DNA from: Escherichia coli
GTDB lineage: Bacteria > Pseudomonadota > Gammaproteobacteria > Enterobacterales > Enterobacteriaceae
Assembly: GCF_041248615.1 (NCBI RefSeq)
Contig: NZ_CP158426.1
DNA length: 64,000 nt
Direction: 5' to 3' (one strand)
Shown: positions 20,593 through 46,207 of the stretch, in pieces
Position numbering within the stretch: the stretch's first letter is position 1
Layout: each line of letters starts with the position of its first letter
The notes under the pieces: generated by a model
What the model saw: the letters and a program-made list of their open reading frames with translations, nothing else
Database searches by the model: none
What the model was told of the DNA's origin: nothing
Program-made: the position numbers and the translations under genes

Positions 20593-20612
20593 GTTCAAGT
20601 TTGAGTAAAAAC

Positions 20613-20897
20613 TTAACCGTAAATATTGGCGCGATCGCGCAGTTCTTTACCTGGTTTAAAGTGAGGAACGTATTTTCCTTCCAGTTCTACTTTATCGCCA
20701 GTCTTCGGATTACGTCCGGTACGTGGTGCGCGGTAGTGCAAAGAGAAACTGCCGAAACCGCGGATTTCAATACGCTCGCCCTGCGCAAGAGTCGAGGCCA
20801 TATGCTCCAGCATCTCTTTTACTGCATCTTCAACCGTCTTGGCGGGAATGTGCGATTGCTGGGTGGCAAGTCTTTCTATCAATTCTGACTTGGTCAT
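20613..20897 (-). CDS. ihfB: integration host factor beta subunit
   Basis: 94 aa [23 protein letters not shown], recognised as IhfB. Confidence 0.95.
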
Positions 20898-21056
20898 GAT
20901 TCCTCCGGTTCCTTAAAGGCAAATTAAGCGGCTGCTGTTGCTGCATTGATTAAGGGCGGCCGTAGCCGCCCTTAGTGCTTGATTACAGGACGAAACCTGC
21001 AATCTGTCAAGTAAACTCAACAAACTTCGGAATAAAAATCCCGAAGAGTCAGAGAA

Positions 21057-22730
21057 TTACTCGCCTTTAGCTGCTTTGAAAGCTTCAGCCATTGCGTTGT
21101 TGGAGAAGTTTGCATCTTCCTGTTTGTTAACAGTTGCGATTGCATCTTTCTCGTCAGCTTCGTCTTTCGCACGAACAGACAGGCTGATTGCGCGGTTTTT
21201 ACGATCAACGCCGGTGAATTTAGCTTCAACTTCGTCGCCAACGCTCAGAACCAGGGTAGCGTCTTCAACGCGGTCACGGGATGCTTCAGAAGCACGCAGG
21301 TAACCTTCAACGCCGTCAGCCAGTTCTACGGTTGCGCCTTTAGCGTCAACTGCAGTTACTTTACCGGTTACGATAGCGCCTTTCTTGTTCAGAGCAACCC
21401 AGTTGTTGAACGGATCTTCTGCGAGCTGTTTAACGCCCAGGGAGATACGTTCACGTTCTGCGTCAACCTGCAGAACAACTGCAGCGATTTCGTCGCCTTT
21501 TTTGTATTCACGAACTGCTTCTTCGCCTGCAACGTTCCAGGAGATGTCAGACAGGTGAACCAGGCCGTCGATGCCGCCGTCCAGGCCGATGAAGATACCG
21601 AAGTCAGTGATAGACTTGATTTTACCTTCAACACGGTCACCCTTGTTGTGGGTTTCCGCGAACTGCTGCCACGGGTTAGCTTTGCACTGTTTCAGACCCA
21701 GGGAGATACGACGACGTTCTTCGTCGATATCCAGAACCATAACTTCCACTACATCGCCAACGTTAACAACTTTGGACGGGTGGATGTTTTTGTTGGTCCA
21801 ATCCATTTCGGAAACGTGTACCAGGCCTTCAACGCCTTCTTCGATTTCAACGAAGCAGCCGTAGTCGGTCAGGTTGGTCACGCGACCAGTCAGTTTGGTA
21901 CCTTCCGGATAACGTTTAGCGATAGCTACCCACGGATCTTCGCCCAGCTGTTTCAGGCCCAGGGATACACGGGTACGTTCGCGGTCGAACTTCAGCACTT
22001 TAACAGTGATTTCATCGCCAACGTTGACGATTTCGCTCGGATGCTTAACGCGTTTCCAGGCCATGTCAGTGATGTGCAGCAGGCCGTCAACGCCGCCCAG
22101 ATCAACGAATGCACCGTAGTCAGTGAGGTTCTTAACGATACCTTTAACTTCCATGCCTTCCTGCAGGTTTTCCAGCAGCTGATCGCGCTCTGCGCTGTTT
22201 TCGGATTCGATAACGGCACGACGAGAAACAACAACGTTGTTGCGCTTCTGATCCAGCTTGATTACTTTGAATTCAAGCTCTTTGCCTTCCAGGTGCAGAG
22301 TGTCACGCACCGGACGAACGTCTACCAGAGAACCTGGCAGGAACGCACGAATACCGTTCAGCTCAACAGTGAAGCCGCCCTTAACTTTGCCGTTGATAAC
22401 ACCGGTAACAGTTTCAGCATCTTCGTAAGCTTTTTCCAGCGTGATCCAGGCTTCGTGACGTTTAGCTTTCTCACGGGACAGCAGAGTTTCACCGAAGCCG
22501 TCTTCTACTGCGTCCAGAGCAACGTCAACTTCGTCACCTACCTGGATTTCCAGCTCGCCCTGGGCGTTTTTGAACTGCTCAGCCGGGATGGCGGACTCAG
22601 ATTTCAGACCAGCGTCAACCAGTACTACGTCTTTGTCGATAGCAACAACAACGCCACGAACGATAGAACCCGGGCGGGTTTCGATTTCTTTTAAGGACTC
22701 TTCAAAGAGTTGAGCAAAAGATTCAGTCAT
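21057..22730 (-). CDS. rpsA: 30S ribosomal protein S1
   Basis: 557 aa ORF with repeated S1 domains, recognised as RpsA. Confidence 0.96.
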
Positions 22731-22840
22731 GTTTAATCTTCAGGTTTATATTTAACGTCCACCTGGCTCCATGCCGGATGGGGTTGTTTAACATACCCGC
22801 TGTCATTCCATTGCAACGGGGGTACTGCAAATTCGGTCGC

Positions 22841-23524
22841 TTATGCGAGAGCCAATTTCTGGCGCGCGTATTGTAGCGCTTTTTCAATCACTTGCTCAAT
22901 GCTTAAGGTGGTGGAATCCAACACTAAAGCATCGGCTGCCGGAACCAGTGGCGCTACCGCTCGGTTACGATCGCGGTCGTCGCGTTCTTTGATCTCGGCC
23001 AAAAGGCGCTCAAAGTTAACACTAAAGCCCTTCTCCTGCAACTGTAGCATGCGGCGATGCGCACGTTCTTCCGAGGAGGCGTCAAGGAAAATTTTCACTG
23101 GCGCATCAGGGAATACCACCGTTCCCATATCGCGGCCATCGGCAATCAAGCCTGGTAATTCGCGAAACGCGCGTTGGCGACGCAATAATGCTTCACGAAC
23201 GCGTGGGAATGCCGCGACTTGTGAAGCAGCATTCGCCACTTCCTGAGTACGAATTTCGCCGCTGACATCTTCCCCTTCGAGGATCACTTCCAGATTGCCA
23301 TTGGTCGACACAAAACGTACATCCAGATGGGATGCCAGCGGCACCAGCGCATCTTCCGATGCAACATCAACATGGTGATGTAATGCCGCCAGTGCCAGTA
23401 CGCGATAAATTGCACCCGAGTCCAGCAGATGCCATTGCAACGCTTCCGCCATAGCCTTACACAAGGTGCCTTTCCCTGCACCGCTTGGGCCATCAATGGT
23501 AATAACCGGGGCAATTGCCGTCAT
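22841..23524 (-). CDS. cmk: cytidylate kinase
   Basis: 227 aa ORF with P-loop GPSGAGKGT. Confidence 0.92.
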
Positions 23525-23696
23525 CTTTATCTCCTTAAAACAGGCGTACCGTTAACATAACCGCGCGCATTATACGCGCCGACGCCACAAATCGTTAACG
23601 TTGTGTGCAAAAACCAGTTTTGTCTGTATTCAGATGGGGATTTATTGCGCAATTATAGCGGGCTGGCAGAAGACCAGCCCGAAAGATGACAATGAT

Positions 23697-24461
23697 TTAC
23701 TTACCAGAGGCGATACGATCACGGATGTGTTGCGCACGCTCTGTTGATGGTGGGTGAGAGTCAAACATGGACTGGGTACGACCGCCATCCAGGCTGGCCA
23801 ATTTTTCAAAGCTGCCAACCAGCCCCTGGGTGCTGATGCCACGTTTCTTCAACAGATCAAAGGAGAAATCATCTGCTTCGGACTCTTTATCGCGGGAGTA
23901 TTTAGCATTGATCGCGCCTTCTGCGATATCACCTAATTGTGAGCGAGAAAGCTGGGAAGCCACACCGCTGGTAGCGGAAATCGCATCACGTGCGGCAACG
24001 ATCGCATAAGAAGCTTTCATTTCAGCCAGCGAGTGACCCAACGCGACGTGGCCCAGTTCATGACCCAGAACGCCTTCAATTTCGTTGTCGTTCATCATGT
24101 CCATCAGGCCACTGTAGACACGAACACAGCCGTTCGCCATCGCCCATGCGTTGACGTCGCTGGTCATATAAACCTTATAGTTGACCGGCGTGCCATTAAT
24201 ATTGTTACCCAATGCTTTGGCGATTTTTGCCAGACGTTTACCGTACTTGCTGGATTTACTTGCGACTTGATTGCCGCTGTCCATTTCGGCACAGCCCTGA
24301 TTGGCAATCGCTTTTGCATCAGCATCGCTTAACGTTGCTGCTTTATAGGCATTTAAACCTGAGCTGATAGCCATATTGGTATCAATACCGTGGGTATTTT
24401 GACACCCTGTCAGTAATGCTGCAGAAGCCGCAATCGCCAGCAGTAATTTAGTATTCTTCAT
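23697..24461 (-). CDS. ycaL: M48-family metalloprotease lipoprotein YcaL
   Basis: ORF 23697-24485; start placed at MKNTKLLLAIAASAALLTGC (lipobox); HELGHVALGH zinc motif. Confidence 0.82.
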   Translation of the reverse strand: MKNTKLLLAIAASAALLTGCQNTHGIDTNMAISSGLNAYKAATLSDADAKAIANQGCAEMDSGNQVASKSSKYGKRLAKIAKALGNNINGTPVNYKVYMTSDVNAWAMANGCVRVYSGLMDMMNDNEIEGVLGHELGHVALGHSLAEMKASYAIVAARDAISATSGVASQLSRSQLGDIAEGAINAKYSRDKESEADDFSFDLLKKRGISTQGLVGSFEKLASLDGGRTQSMFDSHPPSTERAQHIRDRIASGK

Positions 24462-31170: not shown

Positions 31171-33453
31171 ATGTCCGAGCTTAATGAAAAGTTAGCCACA
31201 GCCTGGGAAGGTTTTACCAAAGGTGACTGGCAGAATGAAGTAAACGTCCGTGACTTCATTCAGAAAAACTACACTCCGTACGAGGGTGACGAGTCCTTCC
31301 TGGCTGGCGCTACTGAAGCGACCACCACCCTGTGGGACAAAGTAATGGAAGGCGTTAAACTGGAAAACCGCACTCACGCGCCAGTTGACTTTGACACCGC
31401 TGTTGCTTCCACCATCACCTCTCACGACGCTGGCTACATCAACAAGCAGCTTGAGAAAATCGTTGGTCTGCAGACTGAAGCTCCGCTGAAACGTGCTCTT
31501 ATCCCGTTCGGTGGTATCAAAATGATCGAAGGTTCCTGCAAAGCGTACAACCGCGAACTGGACCCGATGATCAAAAAAATCTTCACTGAATACCGTAAAA
31601 CTCACAACCAGGGCGTGTTCGACGTTTACACTCCGGACATCCTGCGTTGCCGTAAATCCGGTGTTCTGACCGGTCTGCCAGATGCTTATGGCCGTGGTCG
31701 TATCATCGGTGACTACCGTCGCGTTGCGCTGTACGGTATCGACTACCTGATGAAAGACAAACTTGCACAGTTCACCTCTCTGCAGGCTGATCTGGAAAAC
31801 GGCGTAAACCTGGAACAGACTATCCGTCTGCGCGAAGAAATCGCTGAACAGCACCGCGCTCTGGGTCAGATGAAAGAAATGGCTGCGAAATACGGCTACG
31901 ACATCTCTGGTCCGGCTACCAACGCTCAGGAAGCTATCCAGTGGACTTACTTTGGCTACCTGGCTGCTGTTAAGTCTCAGAACGGCGCTGCAATGTCCTT
32001 CGGTCGTACCTCCACCTTCCTGGATGTGTACATCGAACGTGACCTGAAAGCTGGCAAGATCACCGAACAAGAAGCGCAGGAAATGGTTGACCACCTGGTC
32101 ATGAAACTGCGTATGGTTCGCTTCCTGCGTACTCCGGAATACGATGAACTGTTCTCTGGCGACCCGATCTGGGCAACCGAATCTATCGGTGGTATGGGCC
32201 TCGACGGTCGTACCCTGGTTACCAAAAACAGCTTCCGTTTCCTGAACACCCTGTACACCATGGGTCCGTCTCCGGAACCGAACATGACCATTCTGTGGTC
32301 TGAAAAACTGCCGCTGAACTTCAAGAAATTCGCCGCTAAAGTGTCCATCGACACCTCTTCTCTGCAGTATGAGAACGATGACCTGATGCGTCCGGACTTC
32401 AACAACGATGACTACGCTATCGCTTGCTGCGTAAGCCCGATGATCGTTGGTAAACAAATGCAGTTCTTCGGTGCGCGTGCAAACCTGGCGAAAACCATGC
32501 TGTACGCAATCAACGGCGGCGTTGACGAAAAACTGAAAATGCAGGTTGGTCCGAAGTCTGAACCGATCAAAGGCGATCTCCTGAACTACGATGAAGTGAT
32601 GGAGCGCATGGATCACTTCATGGACTGGCTGGCTAAACAGTACATCACTGCACTGAACATCATCCACTACATGCACGACAAGTACAGCTACGAAGCCTCT
32701 CTGATGGCGCTGCACGACCGTGACGTTATCCGCACCATGGCGTGTGGTATCGCTGGTCTGTCCGTTGCTGCTGACTCCCTGTCTGCAATCAAATATGCGA
32801 AAGTTAAACCGATTCGTGACGAAGACGGTCTGGCTATCGACTTCGAAATCGAAGGCGAATACCCGCAGTTTGGTAACAACGATCCGCGTGTAGATGACCT
32901 GGCTGTTGACCTGGTAGAACGTTTCATGAAGAAAATTCAGAAACTGCACACCTACCGTGACGCTATCCCGACTCAGTCTGTTCTGACCATCACTTCTAAC
33001 GTTGTGTATGGTAAGAAAACTGGTAACACCCCAGACGGTCGTCGTGCTGGCGCGCCGTTCGGACCGGGTGCTAACCCGATGCACGGTCGTGACCAGAAAG
33101 GTGCAGTAGCCTCTCTGACTTCCGTTGCTAAACTGCCGTTTGCTTACGCTAAAGATGGTATCTCCTACACCTTCTCTATCGTTCCGAACGCACTGGGTAA
33201 AGACGACGAAGTTCGTAAGACCAACCTGGCTGGTCTGATGGATGGTTACTTCCACCACGAAGCGTCCATCGAAGGTGGTCAGCACCTGAACGTTAACGTG
33301 ATGAACCGTGAAATGCTGCTCGACGCGATGGAAAACCCGGAAAAATATCCGCAGCTGACCATCCGTGTATCTGGCTACGCAGTACGTTTCAACTCGCTGA
33401 CTAAAGAACAGCAGCAGGACGTTATTACTCGTACCTTCACTCAATCTATGTAA
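31171..33453 (+). CDS. pflB: pyruvate formate-lyase (formate C-acetyltransferase 1)
   Basis: 760 aa ORF; C-terminal glycyl-radical motif RVSGYAVRF; strong codon bias. Confidence 0.96.
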
Positions 33454-33493
33454 TTAGATTTGACTGAAATCGTACAGTAAAAAGCGTACAATA

Positions 33494-33521
33494 AAGGCTC
33501 CACGAAAGTGGGGCCTTTTTT
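33494..33521 (+). terminator. rho-independent terminator after pflB
   Basis: aaaggctccacgaaagtggggccttttttag hairpin with T-run. Confidence 0.7.
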
Positions 33522-33644
33522 AGCACGAGAGCCTTTTTTGTCAGCTATCTATACTTTAAGGTGACTGCCAAAACAGACTCGACGTAGCCTTCGAGCTGCG
33601 CACCAACACGGCCTCAGATGGGCCACATCTGGAGAAACACCGCA

Positions 33645-34385
33645 ATGTCAGTTATTGGTCGCATTCACTCCTTTGAATCCTGTGGAACCGTAGACGGCCC
33701 GGGTATTCGCTTTATCACCTTTTTCCAGGGCTGCCTGATGCGCTGCCTGTATTGTCATAACCGCGACACCTGGGACACGCATGGCGGTAAAGAAGTTACC
33801 GTTGAAGATTTGATGAAGGAAGTGGTGACCTATCGCCACTTTATGAACGCTTCCGGCGGCGGCGTTACCGCATCCGGCGGTGAAGCAATCCTGCAAGCTG
33901 AGTTTGTTCGTGACTGGTTCCGCGCCTGCAAAAAAGAAGGCATTCATACCTGTCTGGATACCAACGGTTTTGTTCGTCGTTACGATCCGGTGATTGATGA
34001 ACTGCTGGAAGTAACCGACCTGGTAATGCTCGATCTCAAACAGATGAACGACGAGATCCACCAAAATCTGGTTGGAGTTTCCAACCACCGCACGCTGGAG
34101 TTCGCCAAATATCTGGCGAACAAAAATGTGAAGGTGTGGATCCGCTACGTTGTTGTCCCAGGCTGGTCTGACGATGACGATTCAGCGCATCGCCTCGGTG
34201 AATTTACCCGTGATATGGGCAACGTTGAGAAAATCGAGCTTCTCCCCTACCACGAACTGGGCAAACACAAATGGGTGGCGATGGGTGAAGAATACAAACT
34301 TGATGGTGTTAAACCACCGAAGAAAGAGACCATGGAACGCGTGAAAGGCATTCTTGAGCAGTACGGTCATAAGGTAATGTTCTAA
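33645..34385 (+). CDS. pflA: pyruvate formate-lyase activating enzyme (radical SAM)
   Basis: ORF 33618-34385; start placed at [20 protein letters not shown]; CxxxCxxC radical-SAM motif [10 protein letters not shown]. Confidence 0.92.
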
Positions 34386-34393
34386 TTTCCCCG

Positions 34394-34428
34394 TAAAGCG
34401 GCAACTTTTTTGAGTTGCCGCTTTTTTA
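34394..34428 (+). terminator. rho-independent terminator after pflA
   Basis: gcggcaact / agttgccgc stem followed by TTTTTT. Confidence 0.7.
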
Positions 34429-34594
34429 TTCCGCGCTGCATAAATAATTCAGAGCTCTATTTCTAACGCCCTTACAGCACAGCTTCCAAATGTATTACCC
34501 AAACCGCCAGTATATGTCCTGCGGCTTGCGCGCATTTCTCGATTATGTAAAAACGGGTCAGATCTGCCAGAGTCAGCGTCACCGGCCACAATAA

Positions 34595-36025
34595 TTATTT
34601 GCTATTCGCTTTACGCGCCAGCAGCGGGAATATCAGCCCTAATCCTACCAGCACAAACGGCGTTGCAACATTCAGCGCCAACTGGAATGTCCACTCTGCG
34701 GTGAAGGCTTCCATTTTCGGGAAAATACCAGTCAGGCAGGCAAAAGCGGTAAAGGCAAAACACCAAATTCCGACGGTCATTGCCAGCGGCTTATTACGAA
34801 TAAAGACATATTCTGGTTTATATTTCTGCGCCAGGCGAACAACTGCAATAAATGCAACAAATACCCATAAATAACGCAGCGGCATCACTACCGAGTTAAG
34901 ATTCAACAGCCATTTATAGAGATTGTTCATATCACCAATGCCGAGAGTCGGTAGCATTATCAGGATCGCCACCAGCACCAGGGTCAGAAAATAGCCATTA
35001 ACGGGCGTACCAGAAGCGTTGGTACGACATAAACTGGCTGGAATATATTTGCTGTCAGCATCGCCTAATAACACTTTAAGCGGCGCATCAATCGAGAATA
35101 CCAGCGCAGCTACTTGTCCCAGGGTATTCGCAATGGCATAAATCACCATTAAAGTATTACCCATGTTGTAATACTCGCCCAGCTTCTGAAAGGCGTAATA
35201 CTGACCGTTAGTCATTAAGTCATCCGGGATATTACGCGAGTCAAACATCATCCCCATCGCCAGTGAGCCCAGAATGGCACAAACCGCAACCATCACCGCC
35301 AGGCATAACATCCCTTTTGGAAATTCTTTTCCTGGGTTGCGCGTTTGATTAACGTAAGGAGAAATCTTCTCTGCTCCGCCAACCGCGAAAACCAGCATTG
35401 AAATAGTGGTAATGTAGGTAAAGTCGATATGAGGAATGAACGTTTCCCAGGTAATGTTTGTGGTCGCAATATGCACTTCAGTAATTGCAGGCGCGGTTAC
35501 CGCCATCGCCACATACAGGAGCGACATAACAAACATCGCAATCCCTGCCACAGAACCGACGATTTTCAGCGATTTCATACCGCGTGAAGCAACCCACATA
35601 AAGAAGATAAACAGCACCAGCGTTAACCCCTGTAACGCTACGACTGAATATTCTTTGATTAACGAACCGTCGCCTTTCATCGCCCAACCGAGCGCAATCA
35701 GTATTGCCTGGGGTTTTTGTGCCAGATAGGGAATATGCACTACCCAGTAGGTCCACGCGGCGAGGTAAGCCAGTCCGGGTCCCATCGTGTGTTTAATCCA
35801 GGTACTGACCCCGCCCTTCCCATCTTTGAAGGTCGAGCCTAACTGACCAACAATTAGCGCATAAGGTGTGAAATAGAGCGCAAAGATAAACACCCATGAA
35901 AAAACAACCACCAGCCCCTGGTTGGCGTAGTTATTAACAACGTTGCCAAAACCCCAGACAGTGATAAAAGACATCAGCGCAATGTTGTACCATCGCAGCT
36001 GTTTTTCCTGAACATTCCCAGCCAT
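34595..36025 (-). CDS. ycaM: APC-family amino acid/polyamine transporter YcaM
   Basis: ORF 34595-36217; start placed at MAGNVQEKQLRWYNIALMSF; polytopic membrane protein. Confidence 0.8.
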   Translation of the reverse strand: MAGNVQEKQLRWYNIALMSFITVWGFGNVVNNYANQGLVVVFSWVFIFALYFTPYALIVGQLGSTFKDGKGGVSTWIKHTMGPGLAYLAAWTYWVVHIPYLAQKPQAILIALGWAMKGDGSLIKEYSVVALQGLTLVLFIFFMWVASRGMKSLKIVGSVAGIAMFVMSLLYVAMAVTAPAITEVHIATTNITWETFIPHIDFTYITTISMLVFAVGGAEKISPYVNQTRNPGKEFPKGMLCLAVMVAVCAILGSLAMGMMFDSRNIPDDLMTNGQYYAFQKLGEYYNMGNTLMVIYAIANTLGQVAALVFSIDAPLKVLLGDADSKYIPASLCRTNASGTPVNGYFLTLVLVAILIMLPTLGIGDMNNLYKWLLNLNSVVMPLRYLWVFVAFIAVVRLAQKYKPEYVFIRNKPLAMTVGIWCFAFTAFACLTGIFPKMEAFTAEWTFQLALNVATPFVLVGLGLIFPLLARKANSK

Positions 36026-36184
36026 AGACAAATCCTTCGCCAAAATTAAAGGGGCATCTGTAAAACGAGGGATTATGCGCGGCAAATAAGAAGTGCGGAA
36101 ATAGCGAAATGCAAAATTATAACCTGCTGCACATTTTATTTTTAAACGAATAAAATTTGGAATAAAGCAAGTCAGATAGAAGAA

Positions 36185-36226
36185 ACAAAAAAGCAGAGTG
36201 TGAAACAGTAAGTTCACACTCTGCTT
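36185..36226 (-). terminator. rho-independent terminator after ycaD
   Basis: Minus strand gcagagtgtgaac...gttcacactctgc stem followed by TTTTTT. Confidence 0.7.
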
Positions 36227-36234
36227 GAATTCAT

Positions 36235-37383
36235 TTACACGTGAGCAACGGGTTTCGGCGTATGACCGGCGTTGCGAAGCAGCATCAGCAAATAGATAAA
36301 CGATACGCTGGCGATCATGATAAACAATAAATTATCGGAGAAATTCTGCATTAGCATGGCAGTAAATGACGGGCCAAGCAGACTTCCCACGGTATAGCTC
36401 AACAGTAAGGCCTGGTTCATCGCCACCAGTTGATGATGTTCAACTTTCTCGCAAGCCCATGCCATCGCCACCGGATATAGCGTAAAGCCAGCGGCACCGA
36501 GGATGAATAACGCTGGGGCCATCGCCGCCTGGCTAAGCATCGCGATACTGCCGAGAATGACGACAAAGACCTGAACACGCAACACCAGCAGTCGACCAAA
36601 CTTATCCGCCAGACGTCCAATCGGCCATTGTCCAAGGATACCCGCACTGACCAGTACCGCCATCCAGAAACCAATGCTGGCATTGCTCACCCCTTTGTGA
36701 TTGAGGTACAGCGGCATCAGGCCATATAGAGATCCCAGAACGATTCCTGAGATAATGCAGCCATTCACGCCAAGCCGCGCCTGACGGAGTTTTAGCATTG
36801 ACGTAATTGACGTCGAATCATGGTTTTCAGCCTGCTGATTCAGCACACGCGTAAACAACAGCGGTAAGATCCCTGCCAACGTCAAACCTGTAACCCACGG
36901 CAATACGGACATCAGCTCGGTTGAAACTTTGCTGACCAGTAACTGGCCTAAAAACGTTCCCACGTAATAAACCATCATATACGCAGCAAGCAAACGCCCA
37001 CGGTTACGTGACGTCCCACTGCACATCAGCGCGCTCTCAACAACCACCCAAATCATGGCACAGCCGACGCCGGCGACAAAACGCCAAGCCAACCAGCTCC
37101 AGAATCCAATCATCAGGCCAAGGCCGGCACAGCCAGCGGCAAAAATGAAGGAGGCCAGATAATAGCTGCGGTTAAAGCCAATGCGCTTAATGACATACCC
37201 TGTCAGCAATGTACCGACCAGGTTGCCGGTAAAATAGGATGAGCTGACAACACCTACCTGCCATGTGGACATGTGTTCCTGGGCGAGCCAAAGCGGCACG
37301 AGTGTATTTAACACTGCGATCGCCAGAGTCAACAAAAGCAGGCCAGACAGCAAAAGCATGACAGGCCGGGTATACGTGGACAT
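36235..37383 (-). CDS. ycaD: MFS transporter YcaD
   Basis: 382 aa polytopic membrane ORF; synteny. Confidence 0.85.
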
Positions 37384-37697
37384 GAATTAAAACCGTGAGG
37401 AAGTTCAAATTTCATGCGCATCATGCCACCGCCAAAAACATTGTCAATGGGTGAAAATACGCGCATATCGCAGCTGAGGTATTATCGATTTATATTACTC
37501 ATTCATAACGCTAATGCTGGAGAGACGATTAATCTCATCTGATTGTTTTTAATGATCTAACACAAATTTCATACGCTTCGTTCAGTCGAAAAATTTCATG
37601 GTCACAGCAAACTCATATTTCCCGTCTATGCTTTCAGGGCAATGCATCGCGTCTGACCGATTTCAGACGTACCACTGACTCTCGAAAGGAGAAGAGG

Positions 37698-42592: not shown

Positions 42593-43597
42593 TTACTGGT
42601 CGATGGACAGTTTATGGACACTTTCAGCCAGCGGATTAAAGCTGATCGCATCCTGTAAAAAGTCCGGTGAAAAATGCGCATACGTCATCGTTTGCTGAAT
42701 CGTGGCGTGACCCAGGATCCTCTGCAACGTGACGATGTTCCCGCCGTTCATCATGAAATGCGTGGCGAACGTGTGCCGCATGACATGCGTGGCCTGCCCT
42801 TTGGGTAAGTCGGGCTTCACCTCCTGAAGGATCTCCCTGAAACTGAGATAATCAACCTGATATAACAGGCCGGTCCGGCGGGTTTTAATTAACGGCACAA
42901 CGGAATCAGCTACAGGAACCGAGCGCGATTTCCCGTTCTTTGTGTTAAAGAACGTCACCCTGTTACCCACGATGTGTTCCCCGCGAAGCGTTGACGCCTC
43001 TTTCCATCTGGCCCCGGTCGAAAGGCACAGAATGGCAATGCGTCGTGCATCACCCTCAAGCCGTTTCAGAAGGCGATCAATCTCGTCATCTGAAAGAAAG
43101 GCCATTTCTGTATTCTGAACCTTGAGTTTACGTATTCCGCGCACAGGGTTTTCGTTATGATAAACCTCCGCGTCAATTAACAACGAAAACATCGCAGATA
43201 AGGCGCACAGGTCGCGATTGATACTGGACGGCATCAGTCCCGCCTGCAACTTATCCGAGCGATACTCAATCACGAATTTTCGTGTCATCTGGCTGGCGCG
43301 CGGGTCCCCCATTTCACGTATCACCTTCTCCAGTCTGGTTCTGTAGGTATCACCATATGCCTGATTACGACCATCAAGCATCCACCACACCTCAATCAGT
43401 TCTGATAACCGCCGTTGATCGGCGGGCCTTGCCTGCCACGGGTTATTGTGGAAATTCTGAAGAACGTATCTTTCGAATTCCTGCGCCTTTGATTTCAGGG
43501 TGAAAATCTTACGAATCCGCCTTCCTCCCGCCCCCTGAGGCCTTACATCAACCTGATAACGTCCGTCTTTGAGTTGCTTAATCGACATGATCAGCAC
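42593..43597 (-). CDS. int: tyrosine-type phage integrase (P2 Int-like)
   Basis: 334 aa ORF; C-terminal HxxR...Y catalytic motifs (VMRHTFATHF, LGHATIQQTMTYAHF); N-terminus IKQLKDGRYQVDVRP resembles P2 Int; adjacent to host junction. Confidence 0.85.
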   Translation of the reverse strand: MLIMSIKQLKDGRYQVDVRPQGAGGRRIRKIFTLKSKAQEFERYVLQNFHNNPWQARPADQRRLSELIEVWWMLDGRNQAYGDTYRTRLEKVIREMGDPRASQMTRKFVIEYRSDKLQAGLMPSSINRDLCALSAMFSLLIDAEVYHNENPVRGIRKLKVQNTEMAFLSDDEIDRLLKRLEGDARRIAILCLSTGARWKEASTLRGEHIVGNRVTFFNTKNGKSRSVPVADSVVPLIKTRRTGLLYQVDYLSFREILQEVKPDLPKGQATHVMRHTFATHFMMNGGNIVTLQRILGHATIQQTMTYAHFSPDFLQDAISFNPLAESVHKLSIDQ

Positions 43598-43657
43598 CTC
43601 CGACGGATAAACCTGTTAACCCCTGCTTACTGAACGCCGCCCGTTCAATATACAGCG

Positions 43658-43999
43658 TCAGCCAGCATTGCGGCCTGATTGGGGTGATTTTTGGGTATTG
43701 CGGGTTGAAACCTGATCGTCCTCCGACTGCGTGGAGCCATCAAGAGAGAGAGCCGGGGCGATCTGACCGGCAACAGGTAGCGTCTTATCTTTGATTAGCC
43801 AGAACATATATTTTTCAAACCGATCCACTTGAAGGACGGCCTCAACAATCTTTGCTCTGGCGATCTTTTGCCCTGACTCATAATTCCTGACAGTTGCCAG
43901 AGATAACCCTGTAATATCAGCAAATTGCTTTTGAGTTAGCCCTTCCGTCTTGCGTATCAAACGCAACTTTTTCGCATAGTCTATTGACAAGATACTCAT
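43658..43999 (-). CDS. phage immunity repressor, P2 C-like (HTH)
   Basis: 113 aa ORF with HTH (LTQKQFADITGLSLATVRNYESG) and C-terminal QIAPALSLDG...SPQSGRNAG resembling P2 C repressor; divergent from cox-like gene. Confidence 0.75.
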   Translation of the reverse strand: MSILSIDYAKKLRLIRKTEGLTQKQFADITGLSLATVRNYESGQKIARAKIVEAVLQVDRFEKYMFWLIKDKTLPVAGQIAPALSLDGSTQSEDDQVSTRNTQKSPQSGRNAG

Positions 44000-44022
44000 T
44001 TGGGGATTAATCTCCTACAAAA

Positions 44023-44067
44023 GATAACCGTACGATTATCTTTACAAGTCATCAAAAATCATCAAAA
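44023..44067. promoter_or_regulatory. candidate early promoter/operator region
   Basis: Near-perfect 22-bp palindrome AAGATAACCGTACGATTATCTT followed by tandem direct repeats TCATCAAAA/ATCATCAAAA in the C/cox-like intergenic region. Confidence 0.4.
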
Positions 44068-44102
44068 GGCGCAACAAGCGCACCAATGCAAGAGGATAAC
44101 AA

Positions 44103-44624
44103 ATGCGGGAGATTATTGCCGACAAAGAGTTATCTGGCGCTCAACCGGTTCAGGATGATGGCGCGGACAATGAATTCATTGAAGCTGCCAACGACAACGA
44201 ACACCTGGAAACCAAAACCAGACCGTCCTACAAAAAGGGCGCAACCCTACGACTGGACGGCCCAGTCGCAGGACTTGTGTCACTGGAAAAAGGGGCTGCC
44301 TATCTGGGGGTAACAAAATCTGCGCTACGCGCCGCCATTCAGCGCGGGCAGATGCCGGGTCACAAAACGCGCTCAAATCCCGAAGATGAAAAGTCAGACG
44401 GTACATGGTGGTTTAACGCCAAAGCCTGGGACGAACTAGCCGACGAACTACTGGAGTGCGAACCGCCAGAGTGGCACAACTGGAAAAGCTACTGGACGTA
44501 CGACCGCAAGAAAAGAAAGTTTTCACCGGCAAACAAGGAGGACTGCCAGACCGTTAAAGGTAAGCAGGTTTACTCCCCCAGAGTTTCAAAACTGGAGCAA
44601 CTCAAAAACAACCAGCCCGGCTAA
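44103..44624 (+). CDS. cox-position early gene, HTH-containing (excisionase/regulator-like), 173 aa
   Basis: First rightward ORF after repressor, RBS gagga upstream; contains AAYLGVTKSALRAAIQRGQMPG HTH-like segment; much longer than P2 Cox. Confidence 0.5.
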   Translation: MREIIADKELSGAQPVQDDGADNEFIEAANDNEHLETKTRPSYKKGATLRLDGPVAGLVSLEKGAAYLGVTKSALRAAIQRGQMPGHKTRSNPEDEKSDGTWWFNAKAWDELADELLECEPPEWHNWKSYWTYDRKKRKFSPANKEDCQTVKGKQVYSPRVSKLEQLKNNQPG

Positions 44625-44632
44625 ACACGAAA

Positions 44633-44839
44633 ATGACCAGCAATATCATCAATGCCGTTTTGAACATTATATTCCTGGAATTAGGCGTAGTAGTGATTTA
44701 TCTGCTTGGCAAGCTAACAGGACAAAAAGAACGTTTTATTGTCCTCAACGTTCATTACGTCGCAGCTTATTCTAAAGGGCTTTTTCCAATAGTTGTTGGC
44801 GCGGGACTTACAGCGTTTGTCATCTGGCTCATCAGGTAG
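44633..44839 (+). CDS. hypothetical small membrane protein (68 aa)
   Basis: ORF with two hydrophobic segments directly after cox-like gene. Confidence 0.3.
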   Translation: MTSNIINAVLNIIFLELGVVVIYLLGKLTGQKERFIVLNVHYVAAYSKGLFPIVVGAGLTAFVIWLIR

Positions 44840-45121
44840 AGGCACACAACGTAATCATTCGTAGCTATATTTCCGCAATAGTATTCAAGTAAAGGAAGAC
44901 AACAACATGAAACCAAGACAAAGATTAACCTCCAGAAGTAGTGACGCATTGCACTTTAAAGCAAAAGACATAATAGCCACAACAAAGGTAGGAGCATAAG
45001 TCTATATACACTTTCAGAATTTCTATCTGGAGAGAACATTAAAAACGGAAGAGGAAGCCAATGAGTATTTGTTATTCATGAAAGATTGCATAGAAGGAAA
45101 AATAAGCGCAGGAGATAAATA

Positions 45122-45430
45122 ATGCGAAAACATTATTCACAGCCACATTTCCGCAACAGTGCACCACGCAGCAATAACCGCTGGAGCCTGCGCGAAACAC
45201 ACGCAACGCCGGGCGGTCATGCTGTAAAACAGACTGGTCAACACACCTGGCTGATTGAGCAGGCCGGACTCGTGATCCACAGATGCCACCGCAATCCGTT
45301 TACCGGAAACCGCATTTTTGCACTGAGCAGCGGCGACAATCAGTTCGGACAGGATTTCACACTGCACGAAGCCTTGCGAACTGCCGACCGCTTAATCGAG
45401 GGGCGCAGCTTTCAGCATACCGACTACTAA
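45122..45430 (+). CDS. hypothetical protein (102 aa)
   Basis: ORF preceded by AT-rich spacer and RBS-like ggagataaataATG. Confidence 0.4.
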   Translation: MRKHYSQPHFRNSAPRSNNRWSLRETHATPGGHAVKQTGQHTWLIEQAGLVIHRCHRNPFTGNRIFALSSGDNQFGQDFTLHEALRTADRLIEGRSFQHTDY

Positions 45431-45468
45431 GGCAAAAGGAGTCTTAATAAGACAGAAGAGGCAGCAAG

Positions 45469-45711
45469 ATGAAAAGAGCCTATAAAGAACTCATTAACGA
45501 CGCGCTTCAGAATTACCATTACGGACTTACAAGCCGTGGCACTAACGGTGACGCTGTTTCACTTGCAGCACTGACTACAGCAATCAAGGGCCTGACCTGT
45601 TGCGCCTTTGGTTCCGGAGATAATGAAGCTCTGACGGAATTACAGGCCATTAATAAAGACCTGTCTGAAGGAAACGTAATAACCCCCTTTGTAATTCAGG
45701 AGGAAGCATGA
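45469..45711 (+). CDS. hypothetical protein (80 aa)
   Basis: ORF with RBS-like aggcagcaagATG; co-directional with early operon. Confidence 0.4.
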   Translation: MKRAYKELINDALQNYHYGLTSRGTNGDAVSLAALTTAIKGLTCCAFGSGDNEALTELQAINKDLSEGNVITPFVIQEEA

Positions 45712-45833
45712 GCGTATTTATGTCATGGTTAATTCTTATCCTTGCCATTATTTGCGCTGTGGGGATTATGCGGGTAATTAACAGCATTAACACCATTGAA
45801 TCGTTATTTACTGGCGATAAGCGCCGTAAATAA
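45708..45833 (+). CDS. hypothetical small hydrophobic peptide (41 aa)
   Basis: ATGA-overlap coupling to preceding ORF; MSVFMSWLILILAIICAVGIM single TM segment; below ORF-table size cutoff. Confidence 0.3.
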   Translation: MSVFMSWLILILAIICAVGIMRVINSINTIESLFTGDKRRK

Positions 45834-45913
45834 ACAGGCGTTTAACACCAGAAACAACCAGAAACATCCGCTCACGCGGAGGGGTTGACCCGCTCAAAAA
45901 GGAGAAATCAGGA

Positions 45914-46207
45914 ATGCTTAATAATAAAAAAAACCGAATCATTGATAACAGTGAACAGGTCAACAAAATAATCGAAGGCACAAACAAATTAATTAAGAAA
46001 AAAAACAAACTAAGCCGTGAATTAATGGAACATCCGGAAGAAATATTATTAGCCATGATGCACCAGACAGAAGCGATAGCCATCGCCCTTGCCGTGCAGG
46101 CGCTTTCTGAGTTCCGGGAAGAAAACATCAGGCTGGCTCAGGAGCTGAAAAACCTCAGACGTCAGCTTCAGAGCACTGAGGCTGGCACGTCATCACGAAT
46201 ACACTGA
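45914..46207 (+). CDS. hypothetical coiled-coil protein (97 aa)
   Basis: ORF with RBS aaaggagaaatcaggaATG; AT-rich, K/E-rich sequence. Confidence 0.4.
   Translation: MLNNKKNRIIDNSEQVNKIIEGTNKLIKKKNKLSRELMEHPEEILLAMMHQTEAIAIALAVQALSEFREENIRLAQELKNLRRQLQSTEAGTSSRIH

Follow-up and report, generated by a model that had tools for sequence, protein, structure and literature searches.

Organization of the interval between pflA and ycaM

The window (the whole 64,000-nucleotide stretch of E. coli DNA analyzed in this study) runs in the orientation opposite to K-12 and is 100% identical over 24 kb to the chromosome of strain NRZ14408 (NZ_LT599825). The gene coordinates in Table 1 were taken from an identical annotated genome (NZ_OW967178), as well as from NZ_LT599825 and the list of open reading frames. 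Direct reading of the sequence places the last base of the pflA stop codon at 34385 and the first base of the minus-strand ycaM stop codon at 34595, leaving a stop-to-stop gap of 209 bp (34386-34594) in which the list for the window contains no open reading frame. The preliminary description had put about 210 bp between the pflA terminator and the ycaM stop; the size is confirmed, but not the starting point, as the distance runs from the pflA stop codon and the terminator lies inside the interval.

Both flanking genes are intact, and their products are shared with K-12-type genomes: PflA is WP_000111043.1 in NZ_OW967178, NZ_LT599825 and K-12-type genomes alike, and YcaM (WP_000918506.1) is identical to the protein of a K-12-type genome. 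The intrinsic terminator of pflA, composed of a 13-bp stem (AAAGCGGCAAC...GTTGCCGCTTT) and a T-run, is retained in alignments of the K-12-type, ST131-type (see below) and other Escherichia loci. The ycaM gene converges on a 3' remnant of ycaN, with 0 bases between the two stop codons. The range given for the deletion junction in Table 1 is the finest placement of the breakpoint that the sequence allows.

Table 1. Features of the window in and around the pflA-ycaM interval
Feature	Position	Strand	Source
pflB	31171-33453	+	annotation
pflA, pyruvate formate-lyase 1 activating enzyme, intact, 246 aa	33645-34385	+	annotation, ORF list
pflA intrinsic terminator	34395-34434	+	terminator scan
Diverged spacer, homologue of the K-12 pflA-ycaK spacer	34435-34481		alignments
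Deletion junction	~34478-34488		sequence reading, BLAST end-points, alignment
ycaN 3' remnant, 36 codons and stop	34484-34594	+	BLASTP, PGAP annotation
ycaM, APC-family permease, intact, 476 aa	34595-36025	-	annotation, Pfam AA_permease_2
ycaD, MFS transporter	36235-37383	-	annotation, ORF list

Farther along the window, the end of a P2-like prophage lies immediately past dmsA (~42593-46000, corresponding to 20594-24001 of locus L087) and encodes a phage integrase, a HTH repressor-like protein and a Cox family protein. In an ST131 genome (L003) this position likewise holds a phage integrase, a HTH protein and a Cox family protein, and strain B771 carries a module with identical proteins there. 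Because of this common prophage sequence, some K-12-type genomes ranked as more similar to the window than they otherwise would.

Comparison with the K-12-type locus and remnants of ycaN and ycaK

The gene order given for K-12 in the preliminary description, with ycaK and ycaN between pflA and ycaM, proved right: the order pflA, ycaK, ycaN, ycaM is found in BHUCD02, in the K-12 strains KLY and MC4100, in E. coli C and in others. As annotated there, ycaK (591 nt, minus strand in window orientation) encodes a 196-aa protein with the Pfam domain Flavodoxin_2, and ycaN (909 nt, plus strand), which abuts ycaM stop-to-stop, encodes a protein with the HTH_1 and LysR_substrate domains. BLAST comparison of the window with a K-12-type reference (locus L002) aligned 33001-34441 with L002 3049-4489 (98.5% identity) and 34482-37500 with L002 6001-9019 (97.9% identity). 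By the end-points of these matches, 40 bp in the window stand for 1,511 bp of K-12-type sequence (a net 1,471 bp fewer), and there is no pflA-ycaM adjacency in the K-12-type locus. The suggestion of an indel in an otherwise collinear core region holds as well, since in the K-12-type loci (K-12, BL21, C and others) the flanks are collinear with those of the window and 98-99% identical, with identical PflA and YcaM proteins; both also have the ycaK stop region and the final 36 ycaN codons in common. Missing from the window relative to them are ycaK, codons 1 to ~266 of ycaN and the divergent promoter region. As this is a deterministic difference in gene content, a chance expectation is not applicable to it.

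The absence of both genes, as originally claimed, thus stands for ycaK and for most of ycaN, but not for the last 36 ycaN codons. These are in frame, and 35 of the 36 encoded residues are identical to residues 267-302 of the K-12-type YcaN by BLASTP; at the nucleotide level the remnant is 96.5% identical to K-12 ycaN overall (3.5% diverged). A Pfam search of the remnant returned no domain match, in contrast to the two domains of intact YcaN. Having no start codon, HTH domain or promoter, the remnant is a pseudogene fragment, and it is labeled by PGAP (in NZ_OW967178 and NZ_LT599825) as partial and pseudo ("incomplete; missing N-terminus"). With only residues 267-302 left, the window has no functional ycaN. 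On the other side of the junction, alignments reveal the ycaK stop codon as a minus-strand TTA at 34472-34474, accompanied by the last ~3 codons of the gene in diverged form (up to ~34481). No 196-aa Flavodoxin_2 reading frame exists between pflA and ycaN, and hence no functional ycaK.

The whole of the 209-bp interval is explained by homology to K-12-type flanks (BLAST and alignments), with nothing foreign in it. The possibility that the 40 bases unmatched by BLAST are filler or foreign DNA was considered and rejected, as they align to the K-12 spacer and the ycaK 3' end, and better still to E. albertii. The survival of truncated pieces of both ycaK and ycaN implies that the short form was derived by deletion from an ancestor bearing both genes. 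Judging from the sequence comparisons, we consider it very likely that the window lost ycaK and most of ycaN through an old ~1.5-kb deletion, and that K-12 did not gain them here by insertion.

On this reading, the ancestral Escherichia locus was arranged as in K-12 (pflA, ycaK, ycaN, ycaM), and a deletion of ~1.47-1.5 kb took away nearly all of ycaK and some 266 codons from the start of ycaN, together with the divergent promoter region of the two genes. The event may have been an illegitimate (microhomology or slippage-type) recombination between the short imperfect repeats CTACCA and CTTCCA. The ends of the corresponding K-12-type segment carry these as a direct repeat (CTACCA at L002 4526-4531 and CTTCCA at L002 6002-6007), of which one copy, CTTCCA, is kept in the window at 34483-34488. 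The match is 5 of 6 positions in present-day K-12, short enough to be possible by chance and next to a flank that has diverged since. No IS element, repeat element or foreign DNA that would indicate a deletion mediated by an IS or another mobile element was found at the junction within the 209 bp. The presence there of the 5/6 repeat only, with neither IS nor foreign DNA, points to illegitimate recombination, with which the weak microhomology is compatible (albeit not a proof of it). The deletion may be ancient or may have passed between lineages, with homologous recombination acting across the locus later.

Distribution of the deletion and alternative states of the site

State counts were obtained over 5,426 complete RefSeq E. 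coli genomes. The K-12-type locus is intact (at ≥80% coverage) in 3,320 of them, the junction of the window is present in 1,022-1,023, and an ST131-type junction, in which ycaM is also lost, in 1,047; about 36 genomes remain by subtraction. The window-type junction was detected by a 65-bp probe (window 34436-34500) that is matched by this junction only. All of its 1,023 matches are full length (947 of them at ≥99% identity), which argues for a single window-type deletion allele in E. coli, and no carrier with other breakpoints was found among these 1,023 genomes. In the carriers sampled, the entire 209 bp are 98.1-100% identical. Among the matches listed, the named records include many O157:H7, O145:H28, O169:H41 and O158:H23 strains, in addition to NRZ14408. 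A second junction type within E. coli, represented by the L007-type interval (see below), was also considered and rejected: used as a probe against all complete E. coli genomes, this interval gave long matches only to window-type alleles, at 78-81% identity.

O157:H7 and O145:H28 belong to phylogroup E, K-12, BL21 and C to phylogroup A, and ST131 to B2. For NRZ14408, a literature search on its phylogroup yielded only papers that cite it in connection with resistance plasmids or as a test strain. The preliminary description called the indel lineage-specific, which is true only loosely: 1,023 of the 5,426 genomes carry the allele, O157:H7 and O145:H28 among them, and E. albertii has this junction too. 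Published genome comparisons of K-12 with O157:H7 reportedly describe K-12-specific segments ("K-islands"). The present case is likewise a short K-12 segment missing from O157:H7 in a collinear backbone, and O157:H7 strains carry exactly the junction of the window.

E. coli alone displays at least four alternative states downstream of pflA. The ST131-type (B2-like) locus is also a deletion state, with its left end just past the same pflA terminator (window 34427/34428). It reflects a separate and larger deletion of 1.76 kb (window 34428-36184, as against L003 8529-8532), by which the ycaN remnant and the whole of ycaM are gone and the pflA terminator is followed immediately by that of ycaD, a palindrome (window 36191-36226). 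In a rare fourth state, found in a few E. coli, the place of ycaK-ycaN is taken by a 12.7-kb island, as in E. coli 06-00048 (NZ_CP015229.1; L089 2780-15489). Lying between ycaM and pflA, this island carries genes for an EAL protein and a GGDEF protein, plus a second, cellulose-synthase-like bcsA-bcsB-bcsC set; its locus has no ycaN remnant, and the 3' ends of ycaM (79%) and pflA (87%) are diverged. Islands at the same site are also present in strain E7-1N7 (L005; only 83% identical) and in L009 (8626-16984), from a divergent Escherichia bearing the title "E. coli E69". The first 8.4 kb of the island (the extent of L009) are 98.6% identical to the latter, which suggests its import from a divergent Escherichia along with the flanks. 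Sporadic IS insertions were observed in the locus as well: ISVsa5 splits ycaM in the window-type genome DSM 103246 (L006 5444-8212), and ISEc52 splits ycaN in the K-12-type genome BEC1-S17-ESBL-07 (H31).

Elsewhere in Escherichia, ycaM adjoins pflA at a distance of ~210-220 bp in E. albertii NBRC 107761 (L010), in Escherichia sp. E1V33 (L011) and in SCPM-O-B-8794 (L007), which is titled E. coli although it is divergent (its flanking genes are 91-98% identical to those of the window). In Escherichia sp. MOD1-EC7003 (L008) the interval is ~240 bp. All four of these non-K-12-type loci with pflA-ycaM adjacency retain ycaN remnants. The remnant is longer in L008, which keeps ~45 bp more of ycaN and no ycaK codons; these different end-points identify it as an independent deletion. 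The junctions of L007 and L011 show a 6-bp difference from that of the window. The single E. albertii genome has the same gene order as the window, a junction collinear with it without any indel, and a ycaN 3' remnant.

These observations bear on whether the window allele goes back to one old event or whether a site prone to deletion lost the genes recently and independently in E. albertii and in several lineages of E. coli. That the locus loses genes readily is clear from the differing junction of L008, the 6-bp differences in L007 and L011, and the separate loss of ycaK, ycaN and ycaM in ST131-type strains; moreover, the remnant is merely 3.5% diverged from K-12 ycaN. On the other hand, one and the same junction is present in all 1,023 E. 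coli carriers, with a near-identical left spacer. This spacer (34435-34481) shares only 59% identity with the left flank of the K-12-type locus, as compared to 78% with its E. albertii equivalent, to which it aligns with no indel across the junction, making recent independent events on K-12-like backgrounds hard to accept. We therefore regard recurrent recent deletion as unlikely.

Under the favored reading of one old deletion, the 3.5% divergence of the remnant, which alone would fit a younger event, is explained, as we infer, by recombination. The three differences from K-12 in the remnant that are closest to the junction include TATTACCC, common to other deletion alleles, and the rest of the remnant is K-12-like, which suggests a recombination breakpoint near 34500, within the scar. 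The distal half of the E. albertii remnant and its ycaM 3' end are far more diverged (79% and 85%), in contrast to the E. coli allele, which is E. coli-like in this region. The scar thus appears to be a mosaic of an E. albertii-like junction-proximal part and an E. coli-like distal part, suggestive of later homologous recombination. In our reading, the ycaK-ycaN pair was present in the ancestor of Escherichia and was lost repeatedly, and the allele of the window is either old or has moved between lineages. A tentative extension of this reading, to which we give less than even credence, is that the site downstream of pflA is a long-lived polymorphic hotspot, where one deletion allele common to some E. 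coli lineages (O157:H7/O145:H28 included) and E. albertii has persisted beside intact alleles. Such a polymorphism may be kept by recombination between lineages or by selection on the lost YcaN-dependent control of ycaC, ycaD and focA.

In the opposite polarity, the short form would be the ancestral one and ycaK-ycaN an insertion acquired by K-12-type strains. A YcaD-anchored scan covered one genome per GTDB species (80 Enterobacteriaceae loci mapped by tblastn). Among the mapped loci, ycaM adjoins pflA with no trace of ycaN, and without ycaK, in Salmonella, several Citrobacter, Kluyvera and Yokenella, and ycaD lies directly beside pflA in many other genera, as an insertion would predict. Yet genomes that never received an insertion cannot contain halves of the genes it brought in, and the window retains 36 in-frame ycaN codons and the ycaK stop region, with remnants likewise present in every short-form Escherichia locus examined. 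Insertion is thereby refuted for the window, by the sequence of the remnants themselves, and is very improbable as an account of the short form; it survives only for the deeper, pre-Escherichia history. In fact, the outgroups without ycaK and ycaN indicate that, at the family level, the pair was probably inserted before or at the origin of Escherichia. An artefact of assembly or annotation, by which ycaK and ycaN were collapsed or missed, is refuted by direct reading of the window sequence and by the same configuration in 1,023 complete genomes contributed independently by many laboratories.

Beyond Escherichia, the pflA-downstream site seems generally variable across Enterobacteriaceae. For example, several species of Citrobacter, Klebsiella, Raoultella and Enterobacter (L014, L023, L025, L029, L053, L061, L071 and L085) have 4-6 kb of other DNA separating ycaD or ycaM from pflA. 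In a distant genus (Enterobacteriaceae bacterium 89; L060 12100-13667), homologues of ycaN (68% aa identity) and ycaK (60%) adjoin pflA, collinear with K-12 at 66% nucleotide identity, in a genome without ycaM. The association of ycaK-ycaN with this site may thus be older than Escherichia; alternatively, the two genes may travel together as a unit.

Expected consequences of the loss

The pflA and ycaM genes themselves are unaffected by the deletion. Carriers are expected to have neither the LysR-type regulator YcaN nor the flavodoxin-like NAD(P)H oxidoreductase YcaK. A knock-out of ycaN in BW25113 was shown to decrease the expression of ycaC, to increase that of ycaD and focA, and to abolish formate utilization (PMC9068703). 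In the absence of YcaN, YcaK and the ycaN promoter, YcaN-dependent effects would be constitutively missing from the carriers, and the YcaN-dependent changes in expression at the neighboring ycaC, ycaD and focA, as extrapolated from the K-12 knock-outs, would be lost. The ycaM-ycaN pair is among the listed convergent excludons (PMC12288877); convergent antisense transcription from ycaN into the ycaM 3' end would also be lost, and ycaM transcripts would be expected to reach the pflA terminator from behind.

Searches of the literature on ycaK, ycaN, ycaM and phylogroup returned no paper describing the pflA-ycaM indel specifically. The loss of ycaK/ycaN is an ordinary, common and probably old gene-content polymorphism of non-essential genes, and the pseudogene fragment is already marked in public annotation. 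Overall, K-12-based models of YcaN (ycaC, ycaD, focA and formate use) and of the roles of YcaK are inapplicable to ~38% of sequenced E. coli, comprising 19% with the scar (O157:H7 included) and another 19% with the larger ST131-type deletion, and the three common states of the locus provide a simple typing marker. The junction shared with E. albertii, together with the apparently mosaic scar, offers a small and clean example of old indel alleles that persist and are reshuffled by recombination.
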